Shown piece after piece: positions 1,875-59,837 of a DNA stretch of 64,000 bases (within the stretch, counting starts at the first letter, position 1; every line of letters starts with the position of its first letter). The stretch is from Alphaproteobacteria bacterium (GTDB taxonomy: Bacteria; Pseudomonadota; Alphaproteobacteria; UBA7879). The notes under the pieces are model-generated. The model did no database searches and was not told the origin of the DNA. It saw only the letters and a program-made list of their open reading frames with translations. Both the position numbers and the translations under genes were made by a program. The stretch is from NCBI GenBank assembly GCA_002869105.1, contig PKTP01000010.1:55789-119788 (forward strand), written 5' to 3'.

Positions 1875-3060
1875 GATGAAAAGCCATCTCTATATCATCA
1901 TCTGCACTTTCTTCTGGTCGTTCAACCTTGTTGCTAACTTGTCTGAAGCAGAAACCTTAACACGCTATTTAAAGGCCTTAGAACACATCCAGAAATACCA
2001 CCCCACGCTCAGCCAGAAAAGCTTGGTTGAACGGTCAATCGATTCACTTGCTCAATCATTGGATGCCCACGGAAAGCTTATTGACATGCATGAGCAAGCA
2101 GATCTCCATCAGCAACTTCGGGGCGAGTTTAAAGGTATTGGCGTTTTTATTCAGAAAAAATCCCCACATTTTATCATTGATAGGGTGTTAAGCCATTCAC
2201 CAGCTGAAAAAGCCGGGATTGAAGCCGGTGATATCATTCTGGCCATCAACAACGTACAAACAACTGGGTTAACCCTGAAACAAGTGATGCAGCACGTTCA
2301 AGCGGATCATCCTCAGGGTGTTAAATTCTCCTTACAAAGGCATAACGATACGTTTGATTACACCTTGAAAAAAGAAAAAATACCCCTCAGTGAACCAAAG
2401 CTGACCTATATGAAGGATGTTGCCATTCTAACAATCCCTTCTTTTCTTTCTAAAAATTTTACGGCAAAGCTTCATGAACGCATCAAACAGATTGATGAAA
2501 AAAAAGCGAAAGGCTTGATTATTGATCTGCGAGGAAATGGCGGCGGCCTAATTGAATCCGGACTTACGTTATGTAACCTCTTTATTGAAAACAAAGTCAT
2601 CACCCAAGTTCAAGAACGTGGCACTTCAAACATTAAAAAATATCTGAGCGGGGGTGGGCTTCTTTTTCCAAACCTCAAAATCATCATCTTAGTGGATGGT
2701 GAAACGGCCTCCACATCAGAAATTGTCGTTGGCTGTTTCAAAGATCATAAACGGGCGTTAATTGTAGGCAATCAAACTTTTGGCAAAGCCTCCATCCAAT
2801 CATTGATTCGCATCCATCAAGACTGGCTACTCCAGCTTACAACCCATCATTATCTAACGCCCAACGGCACCTCCATTGATCAACAGGGCATCAAACCAGA
2901 TGTGCCACTTTCTCCAGAAACCTCCAACGATTCAGTGCTGGAGAAAGCATTGACTCTCCTCAACACGGGTCATCCTCTTCAAACAAACAACCCTGACGAA
3001 ACCTCAAAAAAGAGCCAAATATCGGCGATCAACCACCCTCAAAAACCAACCGTAGCATGA
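1858..3060 (+). CDS. ctpA: Carboxy-terminal processing protease (S41 family, PDZ domain)
   Basis: 400-aa ORF with a signal peptide, a PDZ region (GDIILAINN) and an S41 core (DLRGNGGG... and TFGKASIQS Ser/Lys dyad context). It sits in the conserved position after the envC-like gene. Confidence 0.85.
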   Translation: MKAFTKMKSHLYIIICTFFWSFNLVANLSEAETLTRYLKALEHIQKYHPTLSQKSLVERSIDSLAQSLDAHGKLIDMHEQADLHQQLRGEFKGIGVFIQKKSPHFIIDRVLSHSPAEKAGIEAGDIILAINNVQTTGLTLKQVMQHVQADHPQGVKFSLQRHNDTFDYTLKKEKIPLSEPKLTYMKDVAILTIPSFLSKNFTAKLHERIKQIDEKKAKGLIIDLRGNGGGLIESGLTLCNLFIENKVITQVQERGTSNIKKYLSGGGLLFPNLKIIILVDGETASTSEIVVGCFKDHKRALIVGNQTFGKASIQSLIRIHQDWLLQLTTHHYLTPNGTSIDQQGIKPDVPLSPETSNDSVLEKALTLLNTGHPLQTNNPDETSKKSQISAINHPQKPTVA

Positions 3061-3833: not shown

Positions 3834-5546
3834 TTATTGAACACTAGCAACGCCTGCAGCGCTGGCTGTCTCTTGACGTTCTCCTTGATTGTAGAATTGC
3901 TGAACAACGCCTTCAACAAAAGTTTCAATAAAACGCGCCGGGACTTTTGAATCTTTAGATCCATGCGGCTGCGCAATTGTCTGATCCCCCACCGTTAAAT
4001 GACTGCCGCGTCTGGTAAGTTTATGGCGCACATATTGCATAAAATGAGAGCCGCTTCTCCCCATCTGTCGGGCTTGCTGGTTTAAAATCTTTCCTAAACT
4101 GCTGAACTTTAAACGGGATTTTTTCCTAAGGTCCTCGAGTGAACGCTCAAGGTCTACAAGAGCCGCTGCTGCAGCGGCGCCTGTGGCAGCTGATCCCGCC
4201 GCAGATGATGAAGATTGCGTCTTTTGTCTTTGTGTATGCTTCTTACGACTCTGTTGTTTTTTCGTTTGTTTCGTAAGTTGCGCCCGCGCTGCCGCATTTT
4301 TTTGTGCCATATCCTTTTGCGGGTCTGCTTGCATAATTTGATCTAAGAGAGACTGCTTCACTTCATCTCGCATTCTTACCAGCGCTGCAGCAGGATTTTC
4401 CTCCCCTTCTTCTGCAGCTTCAAGAGCAGGTAACTCTCTCACAATGCCCAAAAGAACTTGGTAAGCTGTCTGATTGCCTTTTGCATCTGGGTTCTCAATA
4501 ATCTCATCCAGCCAATCCAAATACATTAATTCCAATTCTTGCTGGGTTGGCAGAGGAATAAGATTACTATTTTCACCCCCTAAAATTGTTTTGAATCGTG
4601 CATAATCTCGGTGGTGCTCCAAAATAAGTTGAGTCAATGATGCCCCCGACTCACCAATATAACCGGTGAAAGAAGGATCCTCAATCTGCACACCTTCAAG
4701 GTCCACAGAAGACTTTGAGTTAAGATTTTTGAGGGGATTCATTGAATCACTCAGGCCATTATAAGCACTGACTTCAATTCCTCGCTTATCCTCTCTTAAG
4801 TAAATACCTTTGGCTGCAACGACTTCTCCTTCAGGGTTAATAATAAACGTTCGTGGAACACCTGCTTTCATTTCACCATAGGGAAGCTTAATAAGTTCAT
4901 GCGCATGTGAGTTTTTGGCTCTGGAGAAAAAAGGAACTGGCCCCTGAGCGTTCCAAAAATAGTGCAGTGTTAAGCGATCACTCATGCCCTTAATATTTTG
5001 AAGCGTCCCATATGGATAGGTCACTTGAGCTTTATCCTGGTAATGGAGGTAAGAAAGAACGCTCAACGTCATCCGTTGGAATTGCTTGAATGAGTCTGCA
5101 TAATTCTGTTCAGACAGTTTTTTTAAAAACCCGCTTTCTAATACTGCGCCTATGCGGCTCTGAGTATAGAGAGTTGTCACACTAGAGGCGATATATAAAG
5201 TTGCTCCATGATAGCTTGCTGTAGCGTTTTGAAAAGCCACCATAAGATCATTGTTTGGATCTTTTGCCGTTTTTATTGAGCGCGGGTTTATAAATGTTCT
5301 TTTATACGCCTCTACAAAAGAGATAATGCTCCCTTGAGCCATGGTAGCAACTTGAGTATCAACGGGTGATAAAGGATAATTTGTTCCATCAACACACCAT
5401 TTTTTCTGAAAAAATGGCTGCAGCAGGCACTGTTGCTGATCATCCGAGAGATCTTCATGCTTTCCAACTGGAAAAACCACTGCCTCTACTGACAAAGAAA
5501 AAATAAAGAAAAGAAGAAGATGTTTCATAATAGTTCTATATAACAT
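3834..5546 (-). CDS. Hypothetical secreted protein (signal peptide; C-terminal Ala/Ser-rich and polybasic low-complexity region)
   Basis: 570-aa ORF with an N-terminal signal peptide (MKHLLLFFIFSLSVEA; the start may be the second ATG at 5528). No recognisable catalytic motif. The C-terminus reads KKQQSRKKHTQRQKTQSSSSAAGSAATGAAAAAA. Confidence 0.5.
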   Translation of the reverse strand: MLYRTIMKHLLLFFIFSLSVEAVVFPVGKHEDLSDDQQQCLLQPFFQKKWCVDGTNYPLSPVDTQVATMAQGSIISFVEAYKRTFINPRSIKTAKDPNNDLMVAFQNATASYHGATLYIASSVTTLYTQSRIGAVLESGFLKKLSEQNYADSFKQFQRMTLSVLSYLHYQDKAQVTYPYGTLQNIKGMSDRLTLHYFWNAQGPVPFFSRAKNSHAHELIKLPYGEMKAGVPRTFIINPEGEVVAAKGIYLREDKRGIEVSAYNGLSDSMNPLKNLNSKSSVDLEGVQIEDPSFTGYIGESGASLTQLILEHHRDYARFKTILGGENSNLIPLPTQQELELMYLDWLDEIIENPDAKGNQTAYQVLLGIVRELPALEAAEEGEENPAAALVRMRDEVKQSLLDQIMQADPQKDMAQKNAAARAQLTKQTKKQQSRKKHTQRQKTQSSSSAAGSAATGAAAAAALVDLERSLEDLRKKSRLKFSSLGKILNQQARQMGRSGSHFMQYVRHKLTRRGSHLTVGDQTIAQPHGSKDSKVPARFIETFVEGVVQQFYNQGERQETASAAGVASVQ

Positions 5547-7070: not shown

Positions 7071-7819
7071 TTACTCCTTCCATGCATGATACGCACGCAC
7101 CACACCACATGCGTAATTTTTAACAGATATAGACTGATAGTTTGCCTCTTCTAAAAGCTGGCAAAATGTCTCTGGCGCCATAAATGTTTCAATGCTCTCG
7201 GCTAAATATTGATAAGCCGCCTCATTTTTGGCAACCCATTTTCCCATCAGGGGCAACAACCCAAAAGCATAGCCATCATAGATCCTTTTAATCACCTGGC
7301 TTTTGGGTTGGCTGAATTCCAAGCAATGAAAAGAGCCGCCGGGCCCCAAACACCGATAACTTTCTTTCAAAGCGGCCTGAACATCAGACACATTTCGAAT
7401 GCCAAAGGCAATGGAATACGAATCAAAAGCATCTGATTCAAAGGGCAAACGCTCTGCATTGGCGTGTATCCAGTCAATATTTTTAAAGAGGCCTTGATTA
7501 AACAGCTGATCCTGGCCCTTTTTGAGCATCTCTTCATTTAAATCAGTTGCAACAATCTGATAATCAAGGTTGTTCTTTTCCAGTCGACGTACAAGGGCGG
7601 CTGTAATATCACCCGTTCCAGCAGCCACATCCAGATGCTTCAGACCAGGCTTTAGCGGAAAGTCAGCAACAAATGATTTTTCCAAAGACGGTGTTGAAAT
7701 CCACTCATTAAGTCGTTCATCAGATCATATAGATCAGAAACATCGGAAAAAATCTTTTGAACACCCTCTCTTTTTTCTTCAGGGGTCACTTTTTGAAAAC
7801 CAAAGGGAGTTTGTGTCAT
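7071..7819 (-). pseudogene. ubiE: ubiE/menG demethylmenaquinone/ubiquinone C-methyltransferase, frameshifted: N-terminal 55 codons (7819..7655) are in a different frame from the SAM-MTase body (7685..7071)
   Basis: The upstream frame from the ATG at 7819 encodes MTQTPFGFQKVTPEEKREGVQKIFSDVSDLYDLMNDLMSGFQHRLWK..., a clear UbiE N-terminus. It runs into a stop at 7652. The body LDVAAGTGD... is in the frame one base off and, taken alone, would need a TTG start. A 5-nt homopolymer (T5 on +, 7677..7681) sits at the junction, and one extra A would restore ...HRLWKKSFVADF.... Confidence 0.7.
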
Positions 7820-7921
7820 GTGGTGCCCTTTCTAACAACCCGCCCAGTTGACCGTATAATAAAAATTTTAAATGTCAAAATTGTCTGTGCGCCCATCTGT
7901 TTTTATACAATTTAAAATAAA

Positions 7922-9163
7922 ATGAGTATTTTTTTAGTTTTACATCCTAGGGTTGATGTTTTAAACCTAATTTCTATGACAGTGCATTCGCTTTACACAT
8001 TCAAAAAAATAATTGGATTCAGTGCCTTAGTCCTATCTTCTGCCTTTGCCATGTTTTGTATGTTCTTTGGCTCAGGCAATCTTATTTTTCCTCTGGCAAT
8101 TGGTCAAAAAACAGGCAGCGCCTATGTGTACGGCATTCTCGGACTCACAATAACCGGTATCATATTACCATTCTTCGGTTTGATTGTGACGTTTTTATTC
8201 CAAGGATCTTATCAAAACTTTTTCAAAAATTTTGATCGTCGATTCGGCATCGTCATGCCCCTTGTTATATTATCACTGATGGGCCCTTTTGCTGTTATGC
8301 CGCGGTGCATTACAGTTGCTCATGGAAGCTTTCTTCTGGTATCGCCCGATACTTCCATCTGGCAATTTAGTCTTTTCAGTTGCTTCATCATCTATATCCT
8401 GTCTTTTGACAAAGGAAAAATCGTTCCCCTTCTTGGCAGCGCGTTAACCCCGATCCTGCTATTTTCACTGGGAATGATTATTTATTCAGGGATCTCCGCA
8501 GCCCCTAAAGTGCCGCTCAACCCAGAGACGCAAAAGGCTTTTTTGACCGGGATGCATGATGGATATCAAATGATGGATTTGTTTGCCGCTTTCTTTTTTT
8601 CTGCAACGGTCGTCTCTTATCTCAAGGCAAAGCTCAGCCATAAAAAAATCTCCGCAACATCGCGCGTACAACTCATCGTAGCCTCGCTCACATTGGGGGC
8701 CGTCTTCCTAGCTGTGATCTATGCCTTTCTCATTTATCTGGGCGCTGCCTACAGTCAAGAATTAGCAATTGTTCCAGTCGAGTCACGCCTGGCTTACATT
8801 GCTCAAAAAACCCTGGGTCATATTGCCGGGCCTATGGTTGCAACCGCCGTGGGTCTGGCGTGCATTACAACGGCTATTGTTCTCACATCGGTGGTAAGCG
8901 ACTATTATCAGAAAGTCCTATTTCGCTCAAAAATATCTAAGGGGGCAACCAATGTCTTGATTCTCACCATAACTTTTTTTATTTCAACGCTCAAATTTAA
9001 CGGCATCGCTCAATACCTCTCCCCAATTCTCACCTTTCTTTACCCTGGCATCATTATGATGACGCTCCTGTCCCTTGGACAAAAACTGTTTAATTGGCCC
9101 TATCCACGCTGGATCATTGTGGCGGTTTTTGTCCTTACCTTTCTACGAATGGTTCTAAATTAG
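7922..9163 (+). CDS. brnQ: Branched-chain amino acid transport system II carrier protein (LIVCS family)
   Basis: 413-aa polytopic membrane ORF with the LIVCS signature FGSGNLIFPLAIGQ near the N-terminus. The true start may be the internal Met at about 7976. Confidence 0.75.
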   Translation: MSIFLVLHPRVDVLNLISMTVHSLYTFKKIIGFSALVLSSAFAMFCMFFGSGNLIFPLAIGQKTGSAYVYGILGLTITGIILPFFGLIVTFLFQGSYQNFFKNFDRRFGIVMPLVILSLMGPFAVMPRCITVAHGSFLLVSPDTSIWQFSLFSCFIIYILSFDKGKIVPLLGSALTPILLFSLGMIIYSGISAAPKVPLNPETQKAFLTGMHDGYQMMDLFAAFFFSATVVSYLKAKLSHKKISATSRVQLIVASLTLGAVFLAVIYAFLIYLGAAYSQELAIVPVESRLAYIAQKTLGHIAGPMVATAVGLACITTAIVLTSVVSDYYQKVLFRSKISKGATNVLILTITFFISTLKFNGIAQYLSPILTFLYPGIIMMTLLSLGQKLFNWPYPRWIIVAVFVLTFLRMVLN

Positions 9164-21131: not shown

Positions 21132-21588
21132 TTTTACTCTCATACATGAAAGAATACGCGGGGTCACTCACTCCAGACTGATGCCTTCTCAGCGCATCTT
21201 TTAGCGAAATGCCCTGTAAATAGGATAGAATTTGGTCTCCAAGATCAGCCCACAAATAATGGGTCAAACAACGCGCACCATTGGCCATACACCCTTTTTT
21301 ACTGTGCGGCACACATCGGGTGACCCGCATAGGCTCATCCACTGCTTGAATCACATCTGCAATAAATATATCTCCAGTGCTCTTGCTCAAACGATACCCA
21401 CCACCAGCGCCTCGGATACTTGATACAATCTGATGACGGCGCAGCTTATTAAAAATTTGCTCAAGATAGCTAAGAGAGATGCTTTGACGCTCCGCAATAG
21501 AAGAAAGTGAAACGGGCCCGTTTTTCTCATTCAAAGCTAAATCGAGAATGGCCATTACGGCGTATCTTCCACGTGTTCCAAGCTTCAT
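21124..21588 (-). CDS. iscR: Rrf2-family Fe-S-sensing transcriptional regulator IscR
   Basis: 154-aa ORF with the wHTH MKLGTRGRYAVMAILDLAL and three cluster-ligand Cys (CVPHSKKGCMANGARC), as the first gene of the isc operon. Confidence 0.85.
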   Translation of the reverse strand: MKLGTRGRYAVMAILDLALNEKNGPVSLSSIAERQSISLSYLEQIFNKLRRHQIVSSIRGAGGGYRLSKSTGDIFIADVIQAVDEPMRVTRCVPHSKKGCMANGARCLTHYLWADLGDQILSYLQGISLKDALRRHQSGVSDPAYSFMYESKNA

Positions 21589-21638
21589 TGTTGTTTTTCC
21601 CTATAAAAAAAGCTAATCTCCATTGAACTTAAACTAAA

Positions 21639-21663
21639 ATACTTGACTAATTTAGTCAAGTTT
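21639..21663. promoter_or_regulatory. IscR type-1 operator in the divergent iscR / hydrolase promoter region
   Basis: ATACTTGACTAATTTAGTCAAGTTT matches the type-1 consensus ATASYYGACTRWWWYAGTCRRSTAT at 24 of 25 positions. It is a perfect 10-bp inverted repeat ACTTGACTAA/TTAGTCAAGT, located 51-75 nt upstream of the iscR start. Confidence 0.5.
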
Positions 21664-21679
21664 AATTGAGGCACACCCA

Positions 21680-22318
21680 ATGGCAGACATCGTTATTCCA
21701 GGCCCCGCAGGGCGGTTAGAAGTAAAGCACCACGCTCAGATAAACAATCCTGAAGCTCCCACGGCTCTTGTTCTGCACCCACACCCTCTTCATGGCGGGA
21801 CCATGAATAATAAAATGACATATACCCTTTACCAATCGTTTTATCGCGCTGGGTTTCACGTTTGTCGGTTTAATTTTAGGGGGATTGGCAAATCCACCGG
21901 CGAGTATGATCATGGTGAAGGTGAGTTAAGTGATACCGCCACTGTTATGGATTGGCTGCAAATACAGTATAAAGATTCGCGAAACTTTTGGATCTCTGGT
22001 TTCTCATTCGGCGCCTGGATCGCCATGCAATTGTTGATGCGCCGGCCAGAAATCACCGGATTCGTTATCGCTTCCCCCCCTGCAAATAAATATGATTTTA
22101 GCTTTTTAGCGCCTTGCCCTGTATCAGGTCTCATCCTTCAAGGAGATCAAGATGATGTTGTTGATCCTACCAGCGTTAACAATCTCGTCAAAAAGCTACG
22201 ACAACAAAAAGATATACAGATCAGCTATGAACCCATTCAGGGGACAGATCATTTCTTTTTAAACAGGCTGCAAGAGGCGTCTCAGCTCATTGAATCTTAT
22301 CTAAAAAAAGAAGTATAA
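21680..22318 (+). CDS. Alpha/beta-fold hydrolase (COG2945-like, about 210 aa)
   Basis: 212-aa ORF with LVLHPHPLHGGTMNNKM...RFNFRGIGKSTGEYDHGEGE and a nucleophile elbow GFSFGAW. Confidence 0.6.
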   Translation: MADIVIPGPAGRLEVKHHAQINNPEAPTALVLHPHPLHGGTMNNKMTYTLYQSFYRAGFHVCRFNFRGIGKSTGEYDHGEGELSDTATVMDWLQIQYKDSRNFWISGFSFGAWIAMQLLMRRPEITGFVIASPPANKYDFSFLAPCPVSGLILQGDQDDVVDPTSVNNLVKKLRQQKDIQISYEPIQGTDHFFLNRLQEASQLIESYLKKEV

Positions 22319-22331
22319 AAAGTTTAAGGAG

Positions 22332-23201
22332 CTACTTAGCTTTTGCGACTATCTTCTGATTCAATGGTCTTAAAATCCGAGCCAGCTTGCTTCGCAGATC
22401 ATGACGATGCACAATCATATCAATCATGCCATGCTTAAGCAGGTGCTCTGCCGTTTGAAAGTCATCTGGCAGCTTCTCACGAATGGTTTCTTCAATAACT
22501 CGACGGCCTGCAAATCCAATCATTGCCTGGGGTTCAGCAATGGCTATATCACCGGCCATTGCAAAAGAGGCTGAAACACCACCAGTTGTCGGATCAGTGA
22601 GTAACACCAAATAGGGAAGGCCGGCACTTTTCATCATTGCAACAGCCACCATGGTTTTTGGCATTTGCATGAGAGAAAAAGCGCCTTCTTGCATCCGCGC
22701 GCCCCCTGAAGCCGTGATAATCAAGAGCGGCTTTTTAAGGCGGAGGGCTTCTTCAGCAGCTTTAACAATGGATTCACCGACAACAATTCCCATTGATCCA
22801 CCCATGAAATTGAAGTCAAAAGCACAAATCACCAATTTTTCATTGGAAATTGTTCCTGAAGCAATGCGAACAGCATCAGAATGCTTGGTTTTATCACGGT
22901 ATGTTTTTAGACGCTCAGAGTATCTTTTGGTGTCTCTAAACTTAAGAGGATCATGCAAAGCTTCCGGCAAGGTGATTTCTTTATACTGACCATCATCAAA
23001 CAAAAACTTTAAGCGCTGCTCTGCCGACATGCGCAAGTGATGATCACACAATGTGCATACATTGTGGTTGCGCTCCAGATCGCGCATGAAAAGCATTTGC
23101 TCACACTTGGGGCATTTGGTCCAAAGGTTTTCAGGCGTTTCGTTCTTAGCTCCTACAAGAGCGCGGAGCTTTGGACGCACATAGTTGCTAATCCAGTTCA
23201 T
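22332..23201 (-). CDS. accD: Acetyl-CoA carboxylase carboxyltransferase subunit beta
   Basis: 289-aa ORF with the N-terminal Zn ribbon CPKCEQ...CTLCDHH and the carboxyltransferase body. Confidence 0.9.
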   Translation of the reverse strand: MNWISNYVRPKLRALVGAKNETPENLWTKCPKCEQMLFMRDLERNHNVCTLCDHHLRMSAEQRLKFLFDDGQYKEITLPEALHDPLKFRDTKRYSERLKTYRDKTKHSDAVRIASGTISNEKLVICAFDFNFMGGSMGIVVGESIVKAAEEALRLKKPLLIITASGGARMQEGAFSLMQMPKTMVAVAMMKSAGLPYLVLLTDPTTGGVSASFAMAGDIAIAEPQAMIGFAGRRVIEETIREKLPDDFQTAEHLLKHGMIDMIVHRHDLRSKLARILRPLNQKIVAKAK

Positions 23202-23285
23202 GTATGATCCTTCATAAGGTCAGCCGAAGCTATCAACTTTATTAAAAAAAAGCAATATCATAGCTTGAGCTGAAAAATGACTTGG

Positions 23286-23516
23286 TTATGAATTAAGACT
23301 TTCGTTCAATGCCTTGCCTGTCCGCGGATCACACCCAACGCGGGGCGTTCGGTGTTTGACATAAAAAGAGCCGAAGCCTCTTAGTTCCACACGATGATTT
23401 TTCTCAAGAGCTTTCACGATAGCATCAAAGAAAATTTTAACGATGTGCTCAACGTCCATTCTTGATTTTTGTGGCATCCTTTTCATAAGACGATCAACTA
23501 ACTCTGACTGCGTCAT
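23286..23516 (-). CDS. HU/IHF-family DNA-binding protein (IHF-beta-like), truncated inside the beta-arm by an in-frame TAA; possible pseudogene
   Basis: 76-aa product MTQSELVDRLMKR...RVELRGFGSFYVKHRTPRVGCDPRTGKA then a stop. A full-length IHF-beta is about 95 aa. After the TAA the frame stays open for 21 more codons to 23223, beginning PSHF (compare the conserved VPHFKPGK). Confidence 0.6.
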   Translation of the reverse strand: MTQSELVDRLMKRMPQKSRMDVEHIVKIFFDAIVKALEKNHRVELRGFGSFYVKHRTPRVGCDPRTGKALNESLNS

Positions 23517-23564
23517 AGCAAACTCCCTGTTATTATATATTTTAGGCTTCTTGGCGGCCTATTT

Positions 23565-24149
23565 TTACTTTACGATTGTGTCATAGCTTTTCTGCCTGGA
23601 AACAAAGGCTTTAGCTAGACCCTTCATGGCAGCGGCTTTGTTTTCAGCGAGCACCTTCCAGTGCCCTTTCAAGCTAACCACATCAAATTGGTATTGTTCG
23701 ATAACTTCTATGAGGTCTTCACAGTTTTTAGCCATGGCTTGAAGGTGTGATTTTTCCAGTCGACTTAAAGTTGTCACCCCTTGAGGCTTTTGTGTTAATT
23801 TTTTAAATACGCCCAGCGGAGAATTATCATCTTCTTGAATGCGTTTTTTATCATCCAAATCATCATCATCATCTTCACCATCTTCGTCTTCGTCATCTTC
23901 GTAGCTGGAAATATATGATCTTTGCTTTTTCTTTTTTTTCTTTTCTTTTTCTTTTTCTCTTTTGATACGCTCATCTTCATCTTCTAGAACACCATAGGTG
24001 TTCGCCAGATTGACTAAGATCAAACAGTGTTTTTTGTATTCCTGCATTTCTTGCTTGGTTTGATCGCAGGATTTTTCATCTTCTACCCTGATAGAATAAG
24101 ACATTAAACACAAAGAGAGCCCAATAAGAATAGATAAAAACTTGATCAA
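23565..24149 (-). CDS. Hypothetical secreted protein with a K/E-repeat and poly-Asp/Glu low-complexity core
   Basis: The ORF-track ORF (to 24305) overlaps the upstream gene. A TTG at 24149 preceded by GGAGG(N5) gives a clean signal peptide MIKFLSILIGLSLCLMSYS. The mature part includes EDEDERIKREKEKEKKKKKKQRSYISSYEDDEDEDGEDDDDDLDD. Confidence 0.45.
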   Translation of the reverse strand: MIKFLSILIGLSLCLMSYSIRVEDEKSCDQTKQEMQEYKKHCLILVNLANTYGVLEDEDERIKREKEKEKKKKKKQRSYISSYEDDEDEDGEDDDDDLDDKKRIQEDDNSPLGVFKKLTQKPQGVTTLSRLEKSHLQAMAKNCEDLIEVIEQYQFDVVSLKGHWKVLAENKAAAMKGLAKAFVSRQKSYDTIVK

Positions 24150-24216
24150 TAAAACCTCCGTGTTGATATTATTATGGGGAACTAATGCATTTTTTGTCAA
24201 TGACAATATCTGCACA

Positions 24217-24681
24217 TCAGTGGGCTGGTGCACCTGCCCACGGCTCTCGAAAACCAATACCAGAATCCTTAGACGCTCGGCTTGATTTATCTTCTTTGAG
24301 CTCAAACTGCTTGAGCCTACTCTTCAAAATATCAGAGGCATATTGGTTTTCCCGTAGCACTTGTTTATTGAAAGAAGGGGGAGATTGATCCGATTGCGTT
24401 GAGAGAAGATTCAACATAAAAATAGGTTGTTTTTTATAGCTTAACCCCAATCCAGGTTTTGTCTTTTTTTCATAACTGCTTGCTCGAAACTGATTATTGC
24501 CTTGTGCATGAAAGCCACGGCTTGCCAAGCCTTTAGTAGGTTTCTTATACACTGATGAATGATAGCCAACATCAAGATTGATTGGCTTTTTTTTCCGGGG
24601 ATAAAACGAGGCACCCATCCCTAAAAAAAGGGGAATAAAAGTTAAAAGAAAAATATATTTTTTATATTTCATTTTGATCAA
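24217..24681 (-). CDS. Hypothetical secreted Lys-rich protein
   Basis: 154-aa ORF with a signal peptide (YIFLLTFIPLFLGMGASF). The rest is basic (K/R-rich), with no recognisable domain. Confidence 0.4.
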   Translation of the reverse strand: MIKMKYKKYIFLLTFIPLFLGMGASFYPRKKKPINLDVGYHSSVYKKPTKGLASRGFHAQGNNQFRASSYEKKTKPGLGLSYKKQPIFMLNLLSTQSDQSPPSFNKQVLRENQYASDILKSRLKQFELKEDKSSRASKDSGIGFREPWAGAPAH

Positions 24682-24716
24682 AACCCTAAAAGTGTTATTT
24701 ACATAAATAGGTTTGG

Positions 24717-25679
24717 CTAAACAAAGGGATCCTCTTCCTCCATGGATTGAACCTGCCTTGGTTGGGATCGTTTAGGGGGATTAAGAATGCTTTCAAGATA
24801 GTGTGTTTTAAACGTGTACAAATCCGGCGCCTGACTTTGAAGCCTGCTTTTCCAATCATCTTTAGATTCACCTTCTCCTTGACTTAACAGGCTTGTATAT
24901 GCCGTTCCAGCTTGTAAGACTGGGATTTTACCCCGAATCGTAGCCATCAAAAGCGGCGCAGACATCTCTGAAGGCCTAAACCCACCAGAAACACCACCAA
25001 TGGCATAGGTCATAACAGGGTCCTTTATTTTAATACCGCTAGGAATAAATTGAAGCTCAGCTAAATTGCCATCGTGAATCCACGCTGTCAGTGCAGATTC
25101 TGAAAAGGACATACTCAAATCCTTCAAATCGTCAACAACTTGATTTTTGAACGCGAGTCCATTATCCGCCCAATTAGCCAATCTATCTTGAGGAATTTGA
25201 CGTCCTTCCCGACGAATAAATGCCACATAATATATCGGATCAACATCCTTATCTGACCTTAAAAGAGCAGAATTTTCAGCAACTGAGGCTTGTGGCCGCG
25301 GCAAAATAAACTCCACCATTTCTTCTGCTTCGTGAAAAGCTCTTTCAAGTGCCATTTTTTCAAGGGCGTTCATTCCACAAACAAGTGCTCTATGCATGGC
25401 ACTTTCAATATTTCTTTTTGGGATGAATTGCTCAGCAAAACTTGGCTCTGCGCAAACATGCCAACAACTCAGCCCACAATCACGGATCCAGGAAAGAACC
25501 TGACGCCTGCCCTTTTCTGTTTTAAGTTGTTGGCGCACACCCTCTACGATGTCTTTTGCATAGGATCCAAGACCGGCCACAGAGCCAATGAGAGCCAGCT
25601 CCACTGGTGTTGTAGCTTTCACAGAAGTAGCCCCAAACACCATCATCACCATTAAAGAAAGAGGGATGATTTTTTTCAT
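24717..25679 (-). CDS. Hypothetical secreted protein
   Basis: 320-aa ORF with a signal peptide (MKKIIPLSLMVMMVFGATSVKA) and a Cys cluster CGLSCWHVC. No family recognised. Confidence 0.5.
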   Translation of the reverse strand: MKKIIPLSLMVMMVFGATSVKATTPVELALIGSVAGLGSYAKDIVEGVRQQLKTEKGRRQVLSWIRDCGLSCWHVCAEPSFAEQFIPKRNIESAMHRALVCGMNALEKMALERAFHEAEEMVEFILPRPQASVAENSALLRSDKDVDPIYYVAFIRREGRQIPQDRLANWADNGLAFKNQVVDDLKDLSMSFSESALTAWIHDGNLAELQFIPSGIKIKDPVMTYAIGGVSGGFRPSEMSAPLLMATIRGKIPVLQAGTAYTSLLSQGEGESKDDWKSRLQSQAPDLYTFKTHYLESILNPPKRSQPRQVQSMEEEDPFV

Positions 25680-25785
25680 TCAATCTACTCAAAAAATGTT
25701 TTTCTATTCTAAATCTTTTGTGCTCAAATGGCGAAGAAAAATTATTAAAAATGCTTCCATAATGTCTATAAGGCTTCTAATTTTC

Positions 25786-25813
25786 TTGACTTTAAAACGG
25801 ACTTTGGTCTAAT
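25786..25813 (+). promoter_or_regulatory. Candidate sigma70-type promoter for the tRNA pair
   Basis: TTGACT (25786..25791), a 16-nt spacer, then TCTAAT (25808..25813), lying 12 nt upstream of the tRNA 5' end. Confidence 0.3.
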
Positions 25814-25825
25814 GAGCATCTAAAA

Positions 25826-25902
25826 GGGCCTGTAGCTCAGTTGGTTAGAGCCCACCGCTCATAACGGTGTTGTCGTAGGTTCGAGTCCTACCGGGCCCAC
25901 CA
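25826..25902 (+). tRNA. tRNA with CAU anticodon (elongator Met or, more likely, lysidine-modified Ile2)
   Basis: 77-nt cloverleaf: acceptor GGGCCTG/CGGGCCC, anticodon stem CACCG/CGGTG, loop CTCATAA, T-arm GTAGG-TTCGAGT-CCTAC, encoded CCA. It is not an initiator (no three G-C pairs at the base of the anticodon stem, and position 1:72 is paired). C4:G69 and C5:G68 are TilS identity elements, and the body resembles tRNA-Ile. Confidence 0.85.
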
Positions 25903-25964
25903 AAAAACTCGGATCAAAAAGATTGCATCCTCTTTTTTTTGTGATATGATCCGGCCATATTTAA

Positions 25965-26039
25965 GCGGGCGTAGCTCAGTGGTAGAGCACAACCTTGCCA
26001 AGGTTGGGGTCGAGGGTTCAAATCCCTTCGCCCGCTCCA
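25965..26039 (+). tRNA. tRNA-Gly (anticodon GCC)
   Basis: 75 nt: GCGGGCG...anticodon loop TTGCCAA...T-arm GAGGG-TTCAAAT-CCCTT...CGCCCGC-T-CCA. Confidence 0.9.
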
Positions 26040-26101
26040 AATATTTCCCCTTCTCACTTTTTTTTGATAACCTCACTTATACAAATTAATGATGACCTTA
26101 T

Positions 26102-29100
26102 TTGATGATGAGAAAAAAATCACTTCCTGACTCTAAACCCCGGGCTGCGTCTAAAAATATTTTTTTAAAGAATTTATCGCTATCGGGCACCCCTAAAGAT
26201 TTACTAGCTCTTTTGCTTGATGATCCCTCAACCAGTGGTGAGGACTTAGAGGAGCTTGGAAAAGCAGACCTTGAGCTTCTGTTAACAGAAAGCGTCAACT
26301 GCATAAAGAATACCGCCGCACAAGAAATTGTTATAGAATTTCTAATGCTCTCACATGAACCAAAAAACAAAACCGCTGTTTTAATTCACAACCAGGATAA
26401 ACCATTTTTGGTAGATTCCATTACAAACTGTCTACGCCTGGAACAACTAAATGCTGATTATTTCTTTCACCCCATCTTTAGACGAAAAATAAGCAATACA
26501 GGCAATCTCTCTCTTATTGCGCCAGACGAAGAAAAGCCACATGAAAATGAATCTCTGATTATCATTGTTATCAATCAGGACCTTCAAAAAGAGCAAAAAA
26601 AACAATTACATTTGAGCCTAGAGCATGTTCTCAGCCAAGTTGGACTAGCTGTTACAGACTGGGAAGAAATGCTCAAGAAAATGACCCAAGCCAAGAGCAA
26701 TATTGATCTGGGTAAAAAGCATTTTAAATCTACTTTCCTGAGTGAAATAAAGAATCTCCTGGAATGGTTTGAGCAGGGTCATTTTACATTTTTAGGATTC
26801 CGGGAATATATCTTTGAAGATCAAAACCCAAAAATCACTCAAAAGCTTGGCATTACCAAAGCACAAAGTTCTTGTTATTTTAAGCTGAATTGTACCCTGA
26901 ATGATGAAGGGCAAGACTTTCTACCAACAGATGAGCTCTTTATCATCACCAAAACCATCAGTCGCTCTTGGGTCCACCGATCAACACCCATGGATGTTAT
27001 TCGGCTCAAAAAATTTAATAATACTGGAGAAACTGTTGGGGAATATGAGTTTATTGGTTTGCTGACCTCCACGGCCTACAATATCAGTATTAAGCACATT
27101 CCCCTCCTTTCACAAAAATTAGAAATCGTTTTAGCAGCAAGTAAAACGCATCAAAACACCCATACACAGAAATCAATCATCCATATTCTAGAAACACTGC
27201 CCCGCGATGAATTCTTTCAATTCAGTGATGCTGATTTAATCTCCCTTGTACGGCACATTTTACAACTCCAAGATCGTGATCGTTTTCTCACTTATATTCG
27301 TCCTGATCCACTTGGACATTTGATTTCTGCGTATGTTTACCTTCCCACACAAAAATACAGCGATATGCTTCGTCAGAAAATTCAAGTTATTTTAGAACAA
27401 AGGCTTCAAGCACACGTCAACTCCTACAAACCAAATTTAGATCCCGATACCACCTATGCACGCATCTCATTTTCTCTTGCAAAAGCATCCGATCAAAAAA
27501 CCAAACTAAACACAAAAGAGCTTCAAAAAGAAATTGAAGAAGCTTCACAATCTTGGTCAGAAAGGTTCAAGGCCCTTTTGCTCAATGAGAAAGGTATTCC
27601 ATTAGAGTTTTCAGAGGCATTTCCAAAAAACTATCAGCTCCACCACACGCCCACTGAAGCCCTCTACGATACTAGAAAAAGCTTACAATCTCAAAATGAT
27701 GGCGACAAAATCGTTCATTTAGAACTCCATCAGGATCAAACATATAAAGTCAAGATTTACTATCCAGGACCTGCGGCGCCTTTAACAGAGTTAATGCTTG
27801 TTTTTGAACTCATGGGGCTAACCATAAAGTCTGCAATGAGTTACACAGTTGATAAAGCAGGAACAGCTTGTTTATTTACGATTCACGATTTTATTATTTC
27901 CATCCCTCAGGAAGTCAAGAGCAAAAACCCAAATCATTTAGGCAACATCGAGGATGGCGTTCAATCTATTCTAAGGGGCTATTACGAAAATGACTTCTTA
28001 AATTCTCTTATCTTTTATGCCAACTTGACTGTGTCACAGGTTAATGTTTTCCGGGCTTATTTCAAATATCTAAAGCAAATACGGTTTCCTTACAGTTTTC
28101 GGCTGATTTCTTCTGTTTTGAAAGAAAATGTAGCGTTTACCCAAATCATATGGTCTCTTTTTGAGAAGCGCTTTGACCCAAGTCTTAAAAATCAAAATTT
28201 AAATCACCTTCATTACAAGATTGACCGTTATCTTAAAAAATTAAAATCCCTTGAAGAAGATAGTATCTTTAGAGCGCTTTATACCCTAATCAAGGCTAGT
28301 CTTCGTACAAATCACTTCCAAAGAAAGTTGGCTGTATCACCCATAATTATAAAATTGGACTGTGCTTCCATTAACTTCCTACCAGAACCAAAGCCCATGA
28401 TTGAGCTCTTTGTCTATCACAAAGACTTTGAAGGCGTTCATTTGCGCACGGGTAAGGTAGCACGCGGTGGCATGAGATGGTCTGATCGGATTGAAGATTT
28501 TAGAACTGAAATTCTAGGCCTGATGAAAGCACAAAAGGTTAAAAATACGGTCATCATTCCTGTTGGCGCTAAAGGGGGATTTGTTCTCAAGAAAGCATTC
28601 AAACCTGAAGAACGCGATGAGAAACAAGCTTTTGGGATCGCGTGCTATCAGAAAATGATCCAAGTTATGATTGATATCACCGATAATGTGATTAACGATA
28701 AGCCCAAGCACCCTAAGAACATTGTGTGCCATGATGACTATGACCCCTATCTTGTTGTTGCAGCTGACAAAGGAACCGCCACATTTTCTGATTATGCAAA
28801 TGAGATTGCTCTAGAAAATAAATTTTGGTTGGGTGATGCTTTTGCCTCAGGGGGATCAAATGGTTACGATCATAAGAAGATGGCCATTACCGCAAAAAGT
28901 GCCTGGAAGTCCGTTCAACATCACTTCCGAAAACTCGGCGTTGATGTTCAGGAAACCCCGATTGATGTTGTTGGTATTGGCGATATGTCCGGGGATGTTT
29001 TTGGCAATGGCATGCTTTGCTCTGATAAAATCAGACTGATTGCCGCTTTTAATCACCAGCATATCTTTATTGATCCAAACCCTGATCCCAAGAAAAGTTA

Positions 29101-58322: not shown

Positions 58323-59837
58323 TTGCAAGAACTAGATAAAATGACCGATGTTAACAGTCTCATGGTCGGGTTTTTTAAGGCTCTTGCACGCGGTCAAGAA
58401 ACAGCCACCATCCCCAATGAAAAGTTTAACCATTCCCGCACACACCCCCAGCAAGGCGAAAAAAAGATTTTTGCCACCGCCCAGTACACCGTTGATACCC
58501 AAAAGCTTTTGACGCTGTTAACCTCTCTGCCCGTTCAAAAAATAAGTCCCTCAGATTTTACCAATTTCTTTCTCGAATCTATTCTCACCTCTCTTGATGC
58601 AAGCTATGCCCAAGAGCTGCCCAAAAACCTCCAAGAGGGCATCAAAAACTCCAGCAGATCTCTCGCTGAAACCAACCTTCTGGGGTGCAAGATCAAAGAA
58701 ACAGGTGCAGACTTTCATGTTCTTTTTGACCCCAAAAAATGTACAAACCTCGTGTATGCTTTTTCACATCTCTACAGACTCTTCATTTTTGCCAAAGACT
58801 GTCAGACGAATAGTTCACAACCCATGACAAAAGCCCGGGAATGTTTAAAAACCGCAACAAAATCCTTTGAAAAGAATCCCACGTATCCGCCAGAACTCAA
58901 ACAGCCCTTGGGGGAAATTTCACATCAAATGAACGTTGAGACAGCTCTTCGTTCTTTTTCAAAGGCGCTAGAAAATATCAACCCCAAAGGACAGTTTTCA
59001 TCTCAGTTCTCCTCCCATAGCCCTGCCGGTCGCACCACCCTTCAAAACAGTTCCATGATCACCTTTTCGATCGCGGGTCTTGTCAAACATGTTCGCAACG
59101 CCATCAACCAAAAGCTCGCTGATGATGTTGCCCTCATGAAAAAATATCAAGCCCCCCGAACGCACAACCAAGCGCTGAAGGAACTTGATCAACAGCAGGC
59201 CTCTCAAGCACAAGCTTCTTTAACGTACATCTCGCAAAAAATTAAGAGCGGGCTCTCTGAGCGCATGGTCTGTCCATCCTCCCAGTCAGACATATATATA
59301 AACCGCTTTGCCTGCTCTCTGGGGGATATCGCTCTTCTCAACACCCTTTATGACATCGTTGCCTTTCAGCCAACGTGCAAGGAAGAACTCAACGTTCAAA
59401 AGTCAAAATTAGTGTCCAAATGCTTCACCTATTTTGAACAGGCAAACGAGAGCGGCTTTAAAAGTCTTTCTGCTGATCAAATGAAAACGTTGGCTCAAGC
59501 TCATTTTTCTCTCTTTAACTTTTTGAAAAGCTACACCAACGCTGTTAAAACGTTTTCAGAGTCCTTTAACGTTCCCATAGGTTTTCCTGAAGTTCAGGAA
59601 ATAACGTTCACGGTTAAAGAGGTGAATGAGGCCATACGCAAAAGCCAGGCCCACAAAGCCACAGACCCCCATAATCAACGACGGGCTGGCGCCGTGTTCA
59701 ACGCTCTTTATCAGTTGATCCTTCTTAAAAGATCAGACCTATACAATAAGAAGGCGCCGCCGGCTCCCAAAAAACGAAAAAAAATGGGGCGATTCTTTCC
59801 TAAGAAGAAACAACAATCAAAAGCAAAAAAAACCTGA
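58323..59837 (+). CDS. Hypothetical cytosolic protein with a C-terminal polybasic, nuclear-localisation-like tail
   Basis: 504-aa ORF with no signal peptide or TM helix. The C-terminus reads NKKAPPAPKKRKKMGRFFPKKKQQSKAKKT. Confidence 0.45.
   Translation: MQELDKMTDVNSLMVGFFKALARGQETATIPNEKFNHSRTHPQQGEKKIFATAQYTVDTQKLLTLLTSLPVQKISPSDFTNFFLESILTSLDASYAQELPKNLQEGIKNSSRSLAETNLLGCKIKETGADFHVLFDPKKCTNLVYAFSHLYRLFIFAKDCQTNSSQPMTKARECLKTATKSFEKNPTYPPELKQPLGEISHQMNVETALRSFSKALENINPKGQFSSQFSSHSPAGRTTLQNSSMITFSIAGLVKHVRNAINQKLADDVALMKKYQAPRTHNQALKELDQQQASQAQASLTYISQKIKSGLSERMVCPSSQSDIYINRFACSLGDIALLNTLYDIVAFQPTCKEELNVQKSKLVSKCFTYFEQANESGFKSLSADQMKTLAQAHFSLFNFLKSYTNAVKTFSESFNVPIGFPEVQEITFTVKEVNEAIRKSQAHKATDPHNQRRAGAVFNALYQLILLKRSDLYNKKAPPAPKKRKKMGRFFPKKKQQSKAKKT

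Follow-up and report, generated by a model that had tools for sequence, protein, structure and literature searches.

We analyzed a stretch of 64,000 nucleotides (nt) from Alphaproteobacteria bacterium UBA7879 (contig PKTP01000010.1, positions 55,789 to 119,788; the whole stretch is termed the window herein), which carries three adjacent minus-strand genes, g1 (24717..25679; 320 amino acids [aa]), g2 (24217..24672; 151 aa), and g3 (23565..24149; 194 aa, with a TTG start). The explanation that fits best, and that we consider probable as a whole, is that these are vertically inherited core genes rather than an inserted island and that two constitutive transcription units, g1-g2 and g3-ihfB(-accD), supply their products, which Sec exports to the periplasm or envelope. 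A preliminary description, made from the letters of this DNA alone, had listed the same three open reading frames (ORFs), which we recovered at the same coordinates, and had interpreted them as an islet at a tRNA hotspot. That interpretation does not agree with the conservation of the locus: the interval including the tRNA genes is syntenic across saturated synonymous distances, and the three genes show native codon usage and are situated on the 5′ side of the tRNAs.

The order GDH, tRNA-Gly, tRNA-CAU, g1, g2, g3, ihfB, accD, hydrolase, iscR, iscS is identical in four related loci (L016, L004, L008, and L009; L numbers denote the loci compared), with the tRNA pair confirmed in that order for L001, L004, and L008. 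L016 is a sister strain, with a synonymous divergence (dS) of 0.06-0.20 from the window, and L004 and L008 are so distant that synonymous sites are saturated (proportion of synonymous differences [pS], 0.65-0.89), with flanking proteins 75-90% identical. Neither an empty site nor patchy presence was seen: L016, L004, L008, and L009 all carry the genes at this site. The preliminary description had named a conserved position in distant relatives, combined with housekeeping annotation, as what would speak against an islet; the position is indeed conserved, and housekeeping annotation is lacking.

An islet acquired horizontally at the tRNA-CAU/tRNA-Gly hotspot, of which these genes are the remnant after loss of the integrase, would account for the orphan character of the proteins and for the slightly lower GC content of g2 and g3 (z-scores of −1.9 and −2.6), and two plus-strand tRNA genes do lie next to the interval, as had been described: tRNA-CAU (25826..25902; called Met by ARAGORN and divergent from g1) and tRNA-Gly(GCC) (25965..26039), both kept in L001, L004, and L008. 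We nevertheless regard this origin as highly improbable. The interval, tRNA genes included, is kept in relatives with saturated dS, and deeper relatives keep g3 on ihfB with no tRNA nearby. tRNA-targeting integrases and islands insert at the 3′ end of a tRNA gene; the three genes lie 5′ of both. The deviation in GC content and codon usage that had been proposed as a check is not borne out: synonymous-codon likelihood z-scores are −0.15 (g1), +0.96 (g2), and +2.2 (g3), so that their codon usage is at least as native as that of the remaining 53 ORFs in the window, the GC content at third codon positions of g2 and g3 (0.34-0.37) is close to that of the adjacent GDH gene (0.365), and their low overall GC content is due to a high content of Lys, Glu, and Asp. 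No att-like repeats were found in 21500-27000, and neither PHROGs nor tblastn searches of phage and plasmid collections returned a phage or plasmid relative. The absence of an integrase, reported before, stands, in that no integrase or remnant of one and no pseudogene remnant lies in 23565-25679. The lost integrase implied by that report does not, since the interval is filled by three conserved ORFs (2,004 of 2,115 nt are coding, with 44 and 67 nt between the ORFs) and leaves no room for a remnant.

Comparison with their orthologues shows that all three ORFs are real genes under purifying selection. Against L016, the ratios of nonsynonymous to synonymous divergence (dN/dS) are 0.09 for g1, 0.21 for g2, and 0.13 for g3, beside values of 0-0.17 for the flanking ihfB, accD, hydrolase, iscR, and iscS genes. 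At the distance of L004 and L008, g1 is 59-60%, g2 58-67%, and g3 70-77% identical, and orthologues with as little as 28-41% identity retain sharply conserved motifs. The biased composition, the non-ATG start of g3, and the absence of any database annotation might suggest that at least one ORF, with g2 and the low-complexity g3 as the foremost candidates, is not a gene at all; we hold this to be next to impossible, because dN/dS is well below 1, orthologues at 28-41% identity keep both motifs and reading frames, and the ribosome-binding site, start codon, and promoter of g3 are conserved. Several database gene calls in these families have wrong starts, with g3 overextended to 226-230 aa and g2 cut to 121 aa.

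The preliminary description had treated the three genes as one cluster. In distant relatives they separate: in GCA_964351045.1, g1-g2 and g3-ihfB are on different contigs. In each of the eight loci with readable sequence 3′ of g1, g2 follows it, with 11-45 nt between the two and at least four different flanks, comprising genes for a thioredoxin and a glycine-zipper protein (L012), a hexapeptide acetyltransferase (L013 and L014), groES (L015), and another context in L020. g3 lies directly 5′ of ihfB in each of the seven loci with g3, among them L010, L011, and L018, in which g1-g2 is not near g3 and no tRNA is present. Some further neighbors were observed in these loci. A few kilobases 5′ of g1-g2 in L013, a metagenome-assembled genome (MAG) of a distant member of the Holosporaceae, are genes for an Ntox11 toxin-domain protein and a Phage_integrase-family recombinase (7602-8714, plus strand, and 1940-2881, minus strand). 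The gene divergent from g3 in L011 (3-1160, minus strand) and L018 (1370-2749, minus strand) encodes a weak homologue of M36 (fungalysin-like) metallopeptidases.

A sigma-70-type promoter sequence, TTGACA-18-CATAAT (24171..24200, minus strand), matches the consensus at 11 of 12 positions and lies 51 nt 5′ of the g3 start. The pattern TTGACA-17/18-NATAAT recurs 50-57 nt 5′ of g3 in seven of seven loci (the window, L016, L004, L008, L010, L011, and L018; for instance, at 11472-11501 in L004 and 2826-2855 in L018) within flanks that have diverged. On the 3′ side, g3 and the IHF beta-like gene ihfB (23286..23516, minus strand) are separated by 22-75 nt in the different loci, with no conserved terminator and with hairpins that are weak or absent; a candidate terminator in the window, the hairpin at 23543-23561, was rejected, as its T-run is on the plus strand only. 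accD (22332..23201, minus strand) is the conserved neighbor 3′ of ihfB. g3 thus probably heads a transcription unit of its own, g3-ihfB(-accD). The promoter-like region 5′ of g1 (25706..25768, minus strand) contains TAGACA-16-AATAAT and TCGCCA-17-TAGAAT, and a part of it (TTCTTCGCCATTTG) is conserved in L004 and L008. Two operons, g1-g2 and g3-ihfB(-accD), would be the simplest reading of these arrangements.

Beyond the promoter-like region of g1, the block TTAGACCAAAGT...TTTAAAGTCAAGAAAATTAGAA (25780-25825), common to the window and L004/L008, adjoins the 5′ end of tRNA-CAU; since its plus-strand reading contains TTGACT, it probably acts as a promoter for the two tRNA genes, diverging from g1. 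tRNA-CAU itself has G1:C72, C4:G69, and C5:G68 pairs and an Ile-like 5′ half and is without the GGG/CCC anticodon stem. By these features it is not initiator-like, and it may be the lysidine tRNA-Ile2.

All three genes had been described as encoding secreted proteins with no recognizable domain, and both parts of this description are supported. A single strongly hydrophobic segment is present in each protein, at the N terminus, and the features looked for in a Sec signal peptide of the signal peptidase I type are present, namely, a positively charged n-region, a hydrophobic h-region of 10-16 residues, and a small-x-small motif, conserved in orthologues. The predicted cleavage motifs (the slash marks the cleavage point) are VKA/T in g1, GA/S in g2, and [IV]KA/E, IRA/E, or LKA/E in orthologues of g3; small-x-small (AxA-like) sites were seen either in the window proteins or in their orthologues. 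Neither g1 nor g2 has the cysteine of a lipobox (L-[AS]-[GA]-C). g3 of the window has LSLC, and a lipoprotein processed by signal peptidase II was rejected, as the cysteine is a tyrosine in L016 and is absent in other orthologues.

Searches for domains returned nothing: Pfam gave no match at an E value of ≤1 for g1, g2, g3, or any member of the g1 and g3 families, NCBIfam and PADLOC had no match for the three proteins, PHROGs yielded only noise at E values of >0.003 for them, and sequence profile searches of PDB had nothing relevant to g1 or g3. No paralogues of the three genes were found inside the window. An exhaustive HMMER search with the g1 profile over 1.84 billion representative proteins recovered five clusters only, and word-indexed profile searches of 5.8 billion proteins with g3 and g2 recovered seven clusters each. 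Scans of metagenome contigs for related loci found none. Every family member stems from a metagenome (marine or other) or a MAG, and the two species-level genomes, UBA7879 and uncultured Holosporaceae bacterium GCA_964351045.1, are both labeled Holosporaceae. As far as these searches reach, g1, g2, and g3 are restricted to one clade of uncultured, mostly marine Holosporaceae. Holosporales are obligately host associated, mostly with protists (PMC11909080). Literature searches on UBA7879 and on secreted orphan proteins of Holosporales retrieved nothing specific.

In g1, the signal peptide (MKKIIPLSLMVMMVFGATSVKA, cleaved before TT) is followed by a glycine-zipper-like segment (ELALIGSVAGLGSYAKD) and then by a Cx3Cx3C motif. 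The conserved segment after the signal peptide reads T-x-x-E-L-A-x-I-G-x-V-A-G-x-G-x-Y-A-K-D, and by hydropathy the zipper-like part is too short for a membrane span. Downstream of it come KTEKGR and a predicted helix bearing C68, C72, and C76. The CxxxCWHxC cluster noted for this gene in the preliminary description is present as CGLSCWHVC (C68-GLS-C72-WHV-C76), the three cysteines being invariant in eight family members and the histidine not. A heme CxxCH-like site was considered and rejected, since the histidine of CWH varies among family members. The mature protein is acidic, with an isoelectric point (pI) of 5.5. For the structure prediction that had been suggested for this gene, AlphaFold2 with four sequences gave a predicted local distance difference test score (pLDDT) of 34, too poor to use. 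An assignment to SppA/peptidase S49 was also rejected, as no Pfam, NCBIfam, or PDB match was obtained and the serine of GGVSGG varies in distant homologues.

g2 is Lys-rich and basic, as had been noted, with a pI of 10.1 and 27 Lys and Arg residues. It can be read from TTG 24681 (154 aa) or from ATG 24672 (151 aa, MKYKK...); the ATG is the more likely start, because the gene calls in L001/L002 and L016 begin there. At its 3′ end (24217-24240, minus strand, compared with L016 3975-4000), a 13-nt deletion in the window has removed the ancestral stop codon and adds seven unrelated codons, so that the protein ends with EPWAGAPAH in the window versus QENF in L016. The database call of g2 in L008 (121 aa) is truncated, and an ATG further 5′ restores the signal peptide.

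The TTG start of g3 behind a GGAGG (24155..24159, minus strand), already pointed out in the preliminary description, was confirmed: the ribosome-binding site is 5 nt before TTG 24149, and GGAGG-TTTTA-TTG is the same in L016, L004, and L008. Because of this conservation, we prefer the 194-aa model to the 226-230-aa database calls (P0006 and P0009). The protein has an N-terminal conserved block with the motif EMxEYKKHCxxLVNLAxTY, which includes C42, and a conserved C-terminal domain with C143; both cysteines, one per block, are invariant across the family, and the linker between them varies in length and sequence. In the window, a polypurine tract encodes REKEKEKKKKKKQR in this linker, followed at about 23849..23900 (minus strand) by a D/E run. 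Both elements had been described. The uninterrupted tract, however, is 39 nt long (23925..23963, minus strand; A8 at 23932-23939) rather than about 45 nt at 23920..23966. The K/E-then-D/E pattern is found only in the subclade of the window, L016, L004, and L008 and is absent from homologues with 36-41% identity, and we interpret the segment as a variable linker. Low complexity, attributed to all three proteins, applies to the g3 linker only: g1 does not have it, and g2 is merely basic. AlphaFold2 with seven sequences gave an all-helical model of g3 (pLDDT of 55, too poor to use), and a Foldseek search of PDB with it produced only noise (E values of ≥4.9). An assignment of g3 to the Skp/OmpH chaperones (PF03938) was not supported, with none of seven family members matching at an E value of ≤1 and nothing relevant in the PDB profile search.

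The A8 run had been called prone to slippage. The window, L001, and L002, which come from independent samples, all have a run of this length, and the sister strain L016 has A5GA2, so the proposed instability is not seen; at the level of assemblies, g3 is rejected as a phase-variable contingency gene. The only length change in the linker is an in-frame 9-nt tandem duplication (GED) in the D/E run of L016. In L002, seven single-nucleotide polymorphisms (SNPs) are clustered in the part of g3 that matches 23757-23820 of the window, within an otherwise identical stretch of 2.6 kb. Because two of these variants (AATTCACCGC) equal the L016 allele, the cluster suggests a short recombination patch between strains.

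The neighboring ihfB gene had been taken for a decayed, eroding gene. We found neither a frameshift nor progressive erosion; instead, exactly 48 nt have been lost in frame between direct repeats (GG[T/C]AAGGCA; junction at 23318/23319), so that the gene encodes 76 rather than 92 aa. Compared with its counterparts in L016, L004, and L008, the product lacks 16 residues, INVxxRYIPFFKxGKA, to which the returning strand of the DNA-binding beta arm appears to belong. It matches the Bac_DNA_binding profile at positions 1-70 only, short of the full fold, and the full-length IhfB orthologue scores 108.5 bits against the curated IHF-beta cutoff of 115. Because L001 and L002, which are independent samples, have the same deletion, whereas L016, in which the remaining IhfB residues are 100% identical, and every other relative lack it, the deletion is, judging from these comparisons, recent, strain specific, and unrelated to any island.

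Taken together, these data are most compatible with three orphan proteins, unrelated to one another, that would leave the cytoplasm through Sec, lose their signal peptides to signal peptidase I, and act as mature proteins in the periplasm or outer envelope. The acidic g1, with its zipper-like helix and three invariant cysteines on one helix face, would pair with the basic g2; their opposite pI values and invariable adjacency suggest that the two form a complex. In g3, the N-terminal helix and the C-terminal helical domain might be joined by a C42-C143 disulfide, with the charged spacer, which in this subclade would be K/E and then D/E by happenstance, looping out. A likely role is in envelope architecture or at the host interface of a protist-associated bacterium.

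Several points weigh against this explanation. The searches with g3 and g2 used a word-index prefilter, which very distant relatives could escape, and sampling is thin, with roughly five to seven lineages and mostly short contigs. The signal peptides were called from hydropathy and motifs rather than with a dedicated predictor, and cotranscription was deduced from spacing and promoter position. With pLDDT values of 34 (g1) and 55 (g3), the AlphaFold2 models lend no structural support to the helical, disulfide, and complex ideas. Finally, export may extend beyond the periplasm, for example, into a host.

This last point leads to the proposal that the proteins are host-directed effectors, which, once exported by Sec, would pass from the periplasm or outer membrane into a host cell and act on host structures; the charged linker of g3 might then bind host nucleic acid or cytoskeleton. 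The preliminary description had suggested lineage-specific effector or surface proteins of a host-associated bacterium. The restriction to one clade, with five to seven clusters for each protein, and the assignment to Holosporaceae support its lineage-specific, host-associated part. We consider the effector part possible but unlikely. It would be in keeping with the host-associated lineage (PMC11909080), with the signal peptides and the clade-restricted distribution, with the faster evolution of the three proteins relative to their housekeeping neighbors (59-77% versus 85-90% identity), and with the release of periplasmic 89-kDa and 63-kDa proteins of Holospora during infection, as reported in references that PMC11909080 lists. 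Against it, the low dN/dS values of 0.09-0.21 do not point to diversifying selection, eukaryote-like domains are missing from the proteins, and the genes are not linked to any second-step secretion system. The ancient g3-ihfB-accD linkage and the consensus housekeeping promoter also resemble a constitutive envelope gene rather than an effector gene.

Ordinary envelope-biogenesis proteins that have diverged extremely, such as a Skp/OmpH-like g3 and an SppA-like g1, are a distinctly improbable source of the three families. sppA precedes ihfB in many Alphaproteobacteria, and the genes of the window hold a conserved position beside housekeeping genes and are under purifying selection. g1 has the length of a 36K-type SppA, and its GGVSGG is reminiscent of the S49 nucleophile motif; g3 would be helical, charged, and periplasmic, and it is near Skp in size. 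Yet no family member has a Pfam or NCBIfam match at an E value of ≤1, PDB profiles returned nothing relevant, the serine of GGVSGG is not conserved, and g1 is not beside ihfB in distant relatives. A rather doubtful extension of the periplasm/envelope explanation, which we nonetheless record, is that g1-g2 and g3 are unrecognized envelope or host-interface factors that define the marine Holosporaceae clade and that the ancient g3-ihfB coupling, with a single conserved promoter, would tie the output of g3 to the level of a nucleoid regulator, a lineage-specific form of regulation.

On the explanation we prefer, vertical descent and Sec export, the three genes are best viewed as core, clade-defining exported proteins of uncultured protist-associated bacteria, and adjacency to tRNA genes plus orphan content is not enough to call an island. 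If the proteins do act at the host interface, they could serve as candidate markers of, or handles on, a lineage that has no cultured member, and the conserved g3-ihfB promoter unit offers a concrete, testable case of regulation. The case is an ordinary one, that of conserved hypothetical envelope proteins of an understudied lineage, and leaves current understanding unchallenged; the value of the analysis lies mainly in the correction and in a resource for annotation.

Elsewhere in the window, an 802-aa ORF (49335-51743, plus strand) has two matches each to the D-Ala-D-Ala ligase N- and C-domains and thus represents a tandem Ddl fusion. A patatin-like phospholipase of 456 aa is encoded at 47848-49218 (minus strand); such phospholipases are often discussed as virulence or host-interaction factors of intracellular bacteria. 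Two further large ORFs, of 570 aa (3834-5546, minus strand) and 504 aa (58323-59837, plus strand), have no Pfam match at an E value of ≤1e-5.

Among known systems, the periplasmic proteins of Holospora obtusa, of which references listed in the review PMC11909080 name 89-kDa, 63-kDa, and 5.4-kDa species, resemble the window proteins as domainless, Sec-exported Holosporales proteins thought to act at the envelope/host interface. The window proteins are much smaller, and our family searches, which returned only proteins of uncultured Holosporaceae and metagenomes, revealed no sequence relationship, though they did not include a direct comparison with Holospora sequences. g3 resembles homopolymer contingency loci in that its coding region, which specifies an exported protein, contains an A8 run; it differs in that the tract is constant in three assemblies and interrupted (A5GA2) in the sister strain. 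The small Tim proteins of the mitochondrial intermembrane space carry twin Cx3C helix motifs and serve here as a lead only. Like them, g1 would be a protein of an oxidizing compartment with cysteines at i, i+4, and i+8 on a predicted helix, but its three cysteines form one Cx3Cx3C that lacks a second motif as a partner, and homology is not implied. Closer at first sight are the glycine-zipper proteins (Rick_17kDa_Anti, PF05433, and Gly-zipper_Omp, PF13488), with which the mature N terminus of g1 (ELALIGxVAGxGxYAKD) shares the spacing of small residues after the signal peptide; moreover, L012 has a true PF05433 protein two genes 5′ of the g1 homologue. g1 nevertheless matches no glycine-zipper Pfam family at an E value of ≤1, and its remaining ∼270 aa have no counterpart there. 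Finally, the genes of the window share with tRNA-linked genomic islands their position next to tRNA genes and their orphan products, but they are without an integrase or att repeat, lie on the wrong side of the tRNA genes, have native codon usage, and keep their synteny across saturated synonymous distances.

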